A stretch of 64,000 nucleotides of DNA from Escherichia coli (GTDB taxonomy: Bacteria; Pseudomonadota; Gammaproteobacteria; Enterobacterales; Enterobacteriaceae): assembly GCF_048403405.1 (NCBI RefSeq), contig NZ_CP183129.1, one strand, 5' to 3'. This document shows, piece by piece, positions 61,465 to 62,715 of this stretch (position 1 is its first letter; the number at the start of each line of letters is the position of its first letter). A program made the translations under genes and the position numbers. The notes below the pieces were generated by a model. The model was not told the origin of the DNA. It searched no databases and saw only the letters and a list, made by a program, of their open reading frames with translations.

Positions 61465-62715
61465 TTACATGTTCTTGATGATCGCATCACCAAACTCGCT
61501 ACATTTCAGCAATTTAGCGCCTTCCATCAGACGTTCGAAGTCATAGGTTACGGTCTTGGCGTTGATTGCGCCTTCCATACCTTTAACAATCAGGTCTGCG
61601 GCTTCAGTCCAGCCCATATGGCGCAGCATCATCTCAGCGGAGAGAATAATAGAGCCAGGGTTAACTTTGTCCTGACCGGCATATTTCGGCGCAGTACCGT
61701 GGGTGGCTTCAAACAGGGCGCATTCGTCACCGATGTTTGCGCCTGGGGCGATACCGATACCGCCGACCTGTGCAGCCAGAGCGTCAGAAATGTAGTCACC
61801 GTTCAGGTTCATACAGGCGATAACATCATATTCAGCCGGACGCAGCAGGATCTGTTGCAGGAATGCATCAGCAATCACATCTTTAATGACGATCTCTTTG
61901 CCGGTATTCGGGTTTTTAACTTTCAGCCACGGGCCGCCGTCGATCAGTTCACCGCCAAACTCTTCACGCGCCAGCTGGTAGCCCCAGTCTTTAAACGCGC
62001 CTTCGGTGAACTTCATGATGTTGCCTTTGTGCACCAGGGTCACAGAGTCACGATCGTTAGCAATTGCGTATTCGATCGCGGCACGGACCAGACGTTTGGT
62101 GCCTTCTTCAGAACACGGCTTAATACCGATACCGCAATGTTCCGGGAAGCGAATTTTCTTCACGCCCATCTCTTCACGCAGGAATTTAATCACTTTCTCG
62201 GCGTCGGCAGAGTCAGCTTTCCATTCGATACCCGCATAAATGTCTTCCGAGTTTTCACGGAAGATAACCATATCGGTCAGTTCAGGATGTTTAACCGGGC
62301 TTGGGGTGCCCTGATAGTAACGTACCGGACGCAGGCAGATGTAGAGATCCAGTTCCTGGCGCAGGGCAACGTTCAGAGAACGAATACCGCCACCAACCGG
62401 AGTGGTCAGAGGGCCTTTAATGGCAACGCGATATTCACGAATCAGATCAAGGGTTTCAGCAGGCAGCCAGACATCCTGACCATAAACCTGTGTGGATTTT
62501 TCACCGGTGTAAATTTCCATCCAGGAGATTTTACGCTCGCCTTTATAGGCTTTCTCGACTGCAGCGTCGACCACTTTCAGCATGGCTGGGGTTACATCTA
62601 CACCGATTCCATCACCTTCAATGTAAGGGATAATCGGATTTTCAGGAACGTTGAGTTTGCCGTTTTGCAGGGTGATCTTCTTGCCTTGTGCCGGAACAAC
62701 TACTTTACTTTCCAT
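61465..62715 (-). CDS. icd: NADP-dependent isocitrate dehydrogenase
   Basis: 416-aa product [43 protein letters not shown]...; full length ending ...AIIKNM. Confidence 0.98.

Follow-up and report, generated by a model that had tools for sequence, protein, structure and literature searches.

The 3' end of icd, the gene for NADP-dependent isocitrate dehydrogenase, holds an attachment site (attB) that is common to the defective element e14 and the lambdoid phage 21; that phages attach at this gene has been recognised since the late 1980s. A tyrosine integrase of the 21/e14 family carries out the crossover between attP and attB where the final 165 bp of the gene begin. The phage attP bears its own near-copy of this 165-bp icd end, to which the 21 type adds a terminator, and a lysogen therefore keeps a working icd: the gene is completed by the phage-supplied end, and the original end comes to lie at the far end of the prophage as the icdC remnant. 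The same logic applies to the general class of elements that integrate at the 3' ends of tRNA, tmRNA and protein genes, in which the end that the target gene loses is supplied anew by attP; the locus described here does not differ from that class in principle and represents the empty target alone. Replacement of the icd 3' end has also been documented in natural isolates. In the literature, icd is a well-known prophage site (PMC10111431, PMC12803456, PMC6379469), and long identity blocks at icd have been described (PMC10111431, PMC6379469). During evolution experiments with K-12, loss of e14 is reported to have fused icd with icdC and to have given rise to chimeric genes (bioRxiv 10.64898/2026.06.14.732165), and excision of e14 under SOS induction is cited in the same work.

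The annotation of K-12 MG1655 places the start of the 15.2-kb e14 at icd position 1087 and an icdC remnant of 165 bp ahead of iraM, in agreement with the description of K-12 given in a first-pass annotation of the DNA studied here. This 64-kb stretch of Escherichia coli DNA (hereafter the window) has the same chromosomal neighbours as icd::e14 in MG1655, with rluE on one side and iraM, ycgX, bluR and bluF on the other, as well as the same 165-bp replaceable block from icd position 1087, but it carries neither the 15.2-kb e14 nor the icdC duplicate. The first-pass annotation had proposed that icd runs at full length, with a protein ending in ...GDAIIKNM, into its terminator and iraM without a prophage in between, and the translated open reading frame, the terminator hairpin, the gene order and a BLAST search for e14 that came back blank all bear this out. 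Beyond iraM, the genes ymgK, ymgL, ycgX, bluR and bluF follow in the order of K-12 minus e14, and the chromosomal flank on this side is unbroken in the window as far as bluF. We are highly confident that the window icd is intact, that its internal attB for phage 21 and e14 is unoccupied, and that its 165-bp end is a resident allele of a minority lineage and not that of e14, the block being a recombination mosaic. What the locus shows is a textbook attachment site in its empty state, which is already known, and chance is not at issue in what is an observation of gene order and alleles. The features of the locus are collected in Table 1.

Table 1. Coordinates of icd, its attachment site and the adjoining features in the window.
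Feature	Position	Strand	Basis
icd, NADP-dependent isocitrate dehydrogenase	61465..62715	-	intact ORF, 416 aa, no frameshift
Phage-replaceable end of icd, positions 1087-1251, 165 bp	61465..61629	-	K-12 e14 boundary; allele comparisons
Left edge of phage/chromosome homology …ATGCTGCGCCATATGGG, putative crossover region (attB core), intact	61613..61629	-	att alignments
53 bp past the icd stop, also in phage-21-type attP	61412..61464	-	phage matches reach query position 229 = window 61412
Two-way intrinsic terminator hairpin, common to the convergent icd and iraM	61419..61441	both	terminator calls
iraM, anti-adaptor protein, chromosomal flank convergent with icd	61039..61362	+	ORF; RefSeq annotation of identical sequence
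Degenerate second copy of the icd terminator region	60544..60594	-	86% identity over 51 bp, E = 3e-10
icd-rluE intergenic region and first 17 rluE codons (from 62887)	62716..62937	+	K-12 homology ends at 62937

The icd open reading frame is 100% identical to the annotated icd (WP_000444487.1) of E. coli TUM14771 and seven further genomes, and its full-length product is that RefSeq protein. Compared with K-12 icd, 45 of the 1,251 nucleotides differ (about 3.6%); within the last 54 residues of the proteins there are two changes, D398E and E414K. The phage homology covers both the 165 bp of coding sequence and the 53 bp past the stop, and thus totals about 218 bp. At its left edge, …ATGCTGCGCCATATGGG, phage DNA switches to icd sequence in the attP of phage 21 and of Lambda_2E9 as well as in the attR of K-12 and of E. 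coli FDAARGOS_1290, from which we infer, in keeping with the established mechanism, that the integrase would cross over in this interval. The terminator hairpin, which is G+C-rich and flanked by T-runs on both strands, starts 23 bases past the icd stop codon, and its folding energy of -24.4 kcal/mol (z = -4.7) makes it far stabler than shuffled controls. Its loop (61426..61434) occurs in two forms among the alleles, each the inverted complement of the other: GTATAACAC in the window, K-12 and phage 21, and GTGTTATAC in GMF054 and Lambda_2E9. This looks like the result of a loop inversion within a quasi-palindrome and not of three separate base changes.

Several searches agree that the site is empty. 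BLAST of the 15-kb interior of K-12 e14 against the whole 64-kb window returned no match, nor did BLAST of the DNA flanking the phage 21 att site against the same 64 kb. The window contains a single full copy of the 218-bp replaceable block, and therefore no second 165-bp block of the icdC type; apart from that full copy, the window matches the block only in a terminator-region copy of 51 bp. The gene arrangement of an e14 lysogen, with C0293, ymfD … intE … mcrA directly after the icd stop, is absent from the window, and so is that of a phage 21 lysogen, with integrase and excisionase at most about 120 bp from the icd stop and a GATGATG…TTCCCCAA flank, a layout that is present in AB_24_S34, O157 and FDAARGOS_1290. 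The icd body, the 165-bp block, the chromosomal terminator and the iraM/ymgL flank are all continuous in the window, and past the icd stop the sequence matches the chromosomal attR/iraM-side flank of K-12, not the flank of e14. Nothing was found that contradicts an unoccupied site. A single copy of the block leads into the chromosomal terminator and iraM, so that icd carries no prophage in this strain at present. The strain has either never been lysogenic there or has been cleanly cured; excision, if precise, leaves no mark.

A cure of very recent date was also considered, namely that a prophage was lost only in the sequenced clone through induction or curing in culture, or that the duplicated block collapsed during assembly. 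Although e14 does excise under SOS induction (cited in bioRxiv 10.64898/2026.06.14.732165) and precise excision would leave no scar, we regard this as very improbable: the 3.1 kb around icd are matched at 100% in eight independent complete E. coli chromosomes with the identical empty configuration, for example TUM14771 and MS 69-1, 70 records are at least 99% identical to this configuration, the window is collinear with TUM14771 across the icd locus, and empty sites are the commonest state.

The emptiness of the site is also in line with what is seen across the species. e14-specific DNA adjoins icd in 328 of 5,426 complete E. coli genomes, and many of these are laboratory derivatives of K-12. 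Only about 6% of complete genomes thus contain e14, which makes its absence from icd ordinary and indeed the rule, and no single state of icd is commoner than the unoccupied one. A phage-21-type integrase was found in 1,679 of the 5,426 genomes. The icd 3'-end query matched 7,433 places in 5,430 records, which implies that roughly a third of the genomes carry a second copy. The allele of the window is rare, as 108 of the 5,430 records (about 2%) are at least 99% identical over block and flank, most of the others lying at 90-95%. The exact 66-bp terminal tract of icd occurs in 169 records, and three of four sampled exact matches are attR remnants. Of 15 distinct genomes inspected, 8 have WP_000444487.1 (…IIKNM) as the annotated protein, in the empty as well as the lysogenic state.

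An occupied counterpart is FDAARGOS_1290, in which icd is followed by an integrase, an excisionase, a 46-kb lambdoid 21-like prophage carrying iss and sitABCD, an icd remnant and iraM. It shares with the window the iraM flank and the accession of the Icd protein, and its displaced attR copy equals the window block except for two core bases. The difference lies in occupancy: the site is filled in FDAARGOS_1290, and its attL, which is joined to icd, equals the attP copy of Lambda_2E9. Because the same allele is found there as the displaced attR remnant beside iraM, the 3' end in the window reads as the resident chromosomal allele, which is native in the sense in which the displaced end of K-12 is native. 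The presence of this allele as attR behind a 21-like prophage likewise supports its being a site that a 21-like phage can use. The first-pass annotation had taken the unoccupied site for an obvious target of icd-integrating phages, and the comparison with FDAARGOS_1290 is in favour of that view. With the homology edge intact and the same allele serving as attR in a lysogen, the window attB appears competent as a target of a 21/e14-family integrase, as far as can be judged from sequence.

The first-pass annotation had further called the 3' end native and had suggested an alignment with K-12 icd and icdC as a check for e14-type substitutions. The alignment shows that the end is not e14-type. The e14-supplied end differs from the window block at 18 of 165 sites and from K-12 icdC at 12, and at these 12 discriminating sites the window has the icdC state at eight, the e14 state at three and neither at one. 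The e14-specific substitutions at icd positions 1087-1251 (for instance D398 and the CAC/ACC/TTA/GCG-AAA/GAG states) are accordingly not what the window carries as a set. At the protein level, the C-terminus of the window Icd reads …MEGAK…GDAIIKNM, compared with …MDGAK…GDAIIENM in K-12 Icd and …MEGAK…GEAIIENM in icdC. The three sites with the e14 state are icd positions 1155, 1170 and 1203; among seven other empty-site chromosomes, five have the window state at the first two and six have it at the third. At these positions it is K-12 icdC, together with the empty-site strain DA33133, whose block is identical to it, that represents the minority state among the sampled chromosomal alleles.

The word native nevertheless has to be qualified. 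It holds insofar as the allele is resident and recurs as the displaced attR copy of lysogens; it does not hold in the sense of identity with the K-12 icdC allele, from which the window block differs at 13 of 165 sites (7.9%), and the allele is a minority one that lies nearest to phage-borne copies. The interpretation given to the locus at first reading is thus supported with a caveat on this one word, and the underlying observation is confirmed and ordinary. It was also considered whether one native allele, that of K-12 icdC, makes up the majority; this was rejected, as no fewer than six different blocks occur in the empty-site genomes, among which the …IIKNM end is frequent.

Apart from identical sequences, the copies nearest to the window block are those in the attP of phage 21 and of the Lambda_2E9 type, with 5 differences in 165, compared with 7 to 13 in the seven other empty-site chromosomes. 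In these phages of the Lambda_2E9 type (Jouyvirus) and phage 21, the homology of about 218 bp is 95-96% identical to the window; the phage block sits amid phage DNA with int and xis, whereas the window block joins the icd body to the iraM flank. Unlike in that setting, no integrase is found at icd in the window. An attP copy identical to the window block, which would have served as proof of a recent transfer from phage to chromosome, was found neither in INPHARED nor in IMG/VR, where the best copies differ at five and seven sites, respectively.

The block is more variable than the remainder of the gene. In a detailed comparison of eight empty-site chromosomes, pairs differ on average at 5.3% of sites in the last 165 bp, against 1.9% in the first 1,086 bp, a 2.8-fold difference; at third codon positions the means are 13% in the block and 5.4% in the body. 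The first 1,086 bp of the window icd show 27 differences (2.5%) to both K-12 and DA33133, and set against the 13 differences in the 165-bp block of icdC and DA33133 this gives p = 0.001 in Fisher's test. The pattern is even clearer for GMF054, which differs from the window at 8 of 1,086 body positions (0.7%), at 7 of 165 in the block and at 4 of the 53 just past it; among these differences are e14-like states, and its terminator loop has the Lambda_2E9 form. A serine codon AGC is common to the window, phage 21 and Lambda_2E9, whereas seven other sampled chromosomal alleles have TCA with all three bases changed, and the adjacent AAATTG is shared by the window and Lambda_2E9. These alleles suggest that the block is a mosaic built up by exchange of patches between phage and chromosomal copies over time, and the excess diversity of the last 165 bp is consistent with such long-term exchange. 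If chromosomal and phage copies have traded patches in this way, there would be no single native sequence for the species. The two copies that coexist in a lysogen could repeatedly exchange patches and, once excision follows, leave patchwork ends; prophage loss by homologous recombination, as reported for K-12 e14, could also yield them. Vertical descent does not produce such patchworks. Part of the excess may be regional and not phage-driven, since iraM (4.3% from K-12) and the iraM-ycgX spacer (7.1%) are also unusually divergent near the site.

It is on these grounds unlikely that the 165 bp have been inherited strictly vertically with icd, owing nothing to phages, and that the phage-21-family copy was captured from a host of this kind. 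The recurrence of the allele as displaced attR copy and the wide occurrence of WP_000444487.1 in empty and lysogenic genomes would suit such a history. However, the block diverges three times more than the body, strains closely related by their gene body have quite dissimilar blocks, and a three-base switch of a serine codon within one species is not plausibly mutational.

We tentatively entertain, with low confidence and barely ahead of vertical descent, the converse reading, in which the end, or just the patch AAATTG…AGC (61498..61513), would derive from a phage-21-family prophage and have been kept after its loss. This would have come about through homologous recombination of attL with attR, or gene conversion between the two, not through precise excision, and chromosomal and phage ends would then form one shared pool that evolves in concert, which would explain the near threefold excess of diversity. 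The proximity of phage-borne copies speaks for it, as do the AGC codon shared with phages and the chimeric genes that were reported upon e14 loss (bioRxiv 10.64898/2026.06.14.732165); that GMF054 has TCA in spite of a gene body only 0.7% different calls for recombination and not point mutation. On the other hand, the window allele also stands at attR in lysogens and therefore predates those integrations. AGC is found in only 10 of 117 IMG/VR block copies, the best of which is still seven sites away from the window, transfer from chromosome to phage is equally possible, and the sequence just past the stop shows mixed states without a clean junction.

The same 117 copies, a mix of phage-borne attP, attL and attR from several host genera, are themselves diverse and most have TCA, so that AGC as a phage-specific marker was rejected. 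Outgroup polarisation, done as a scan of one genome per species, yielded only three Citrobacter genomes that looked native, two with TCA and one with AGC. At the icd-end copies matched in E. albertii NBRC 107761, E. coli SCPM-O-B-8794, Escherichia sp. E1V33 and E. whittamii Sa2BVA5, the chromosomal iraM-side flank is absent. The flank is 21-like in NBRC 107761 and e14-like in SCPM-O-B-8794, and the copies in E1V33 and Sa2BVA5 share another flank type. Judged from these flanks, occupied icd sites may be found throughout the genus Escherichia.

On the chromosomal side of the site, the degenerate terminator copy at 60544..60594 and the stretch 61412..61459 form imperfect direct repeats on either side of a segment of about 0.86 kb that contains iraM and ymgK. 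In many E. coli, including ATCC 11775 and Nissle 1917, the icd terminator is joined straight to the ymgL side without iraM; judged from identity bands, this applies to apparently about half of the complete genomes. The iraM segment is therefore a repeat-flanked presence/absence variant, which arose either by insertion or by deletion. A supposed third class of icd-integrating element with the flank TTGTTAACCGTTATAAA was rejected, as this flank is the chromosomal ymgL side in contigs without iraM-ymgK. The iraM-ycgX spacer (60337..61038), which holds the tiny genes ymgK and ymgL, forms a local divergence hotspot beside the attachment site, its distance from K-12 standing against about 1% in the adjacent ycgX and bluR.

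Inserted DNA is present in the window away from the attachment site. On the other side of icd, an open reading frame at 62887..63030 begins with MRQFIISENTMQKTSFR, like K-12 RluE. After rluE codon 17, a foreign insert of about 1.5 kb with two genes occupies 62938..64000 and runs past the window end; it encodes an STM2901-family protein (63297..63746) followed by a DUF1493 protein, is flanked by direct repeats of about 15 bp and is found in 374 of 5,426 genomes. The first 17 codons are left at 62887..62937, and the remainder of rluE is annotated in TUM14771 with a new N-terminus, MKYFSDSKSSFRKKQV…. The logic of restoring the target gene is that of the icd phages, here applied to a 5' end and to the gene on the other side of icd. 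Furthermore, a 19-kb integrase-bearing island at 10757..29767 is missing from TUM14771, although the window and that genome are 99.9% collinear elsewhere; the island junction shows a 12-bp overlap. Its genes encode a tyrosine integrase (28311..29663, minus strand), a DUF927 primase-like protein (21757..23883, minus strand), an SLT-domain protein (16902..19523, minus strand), SSB, ProQ/FinO, AntA/B and Rha proteins, as well as a P1 Icd-like cell-division inhibitor. Only 2 of 5,426 complete genomes contain the whole island, and in the one inspected it lies at a different site, between dinD and yicC. With this island, the window does carry a mobile element, though not at icd.

E. coli by default has an intact icd free of e14, and the finding matters little by itself. 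Since the same site allele is occupied by a 21-like prophage in FDAARGOS_1290, the strain is a plausible recipient for 21-like prophages with cargo such as iss and sitABCD. The modest addition made here is that native and phage-type icd ends are not cleanly separable in today's genome collection: the end alleles differ by 3-8% between strains whose icd bodies are 1-2.5% apart, so that the two terms do not describe a clean two-way split. The icd 3' end should thus not be read as a vertically inherited marker.
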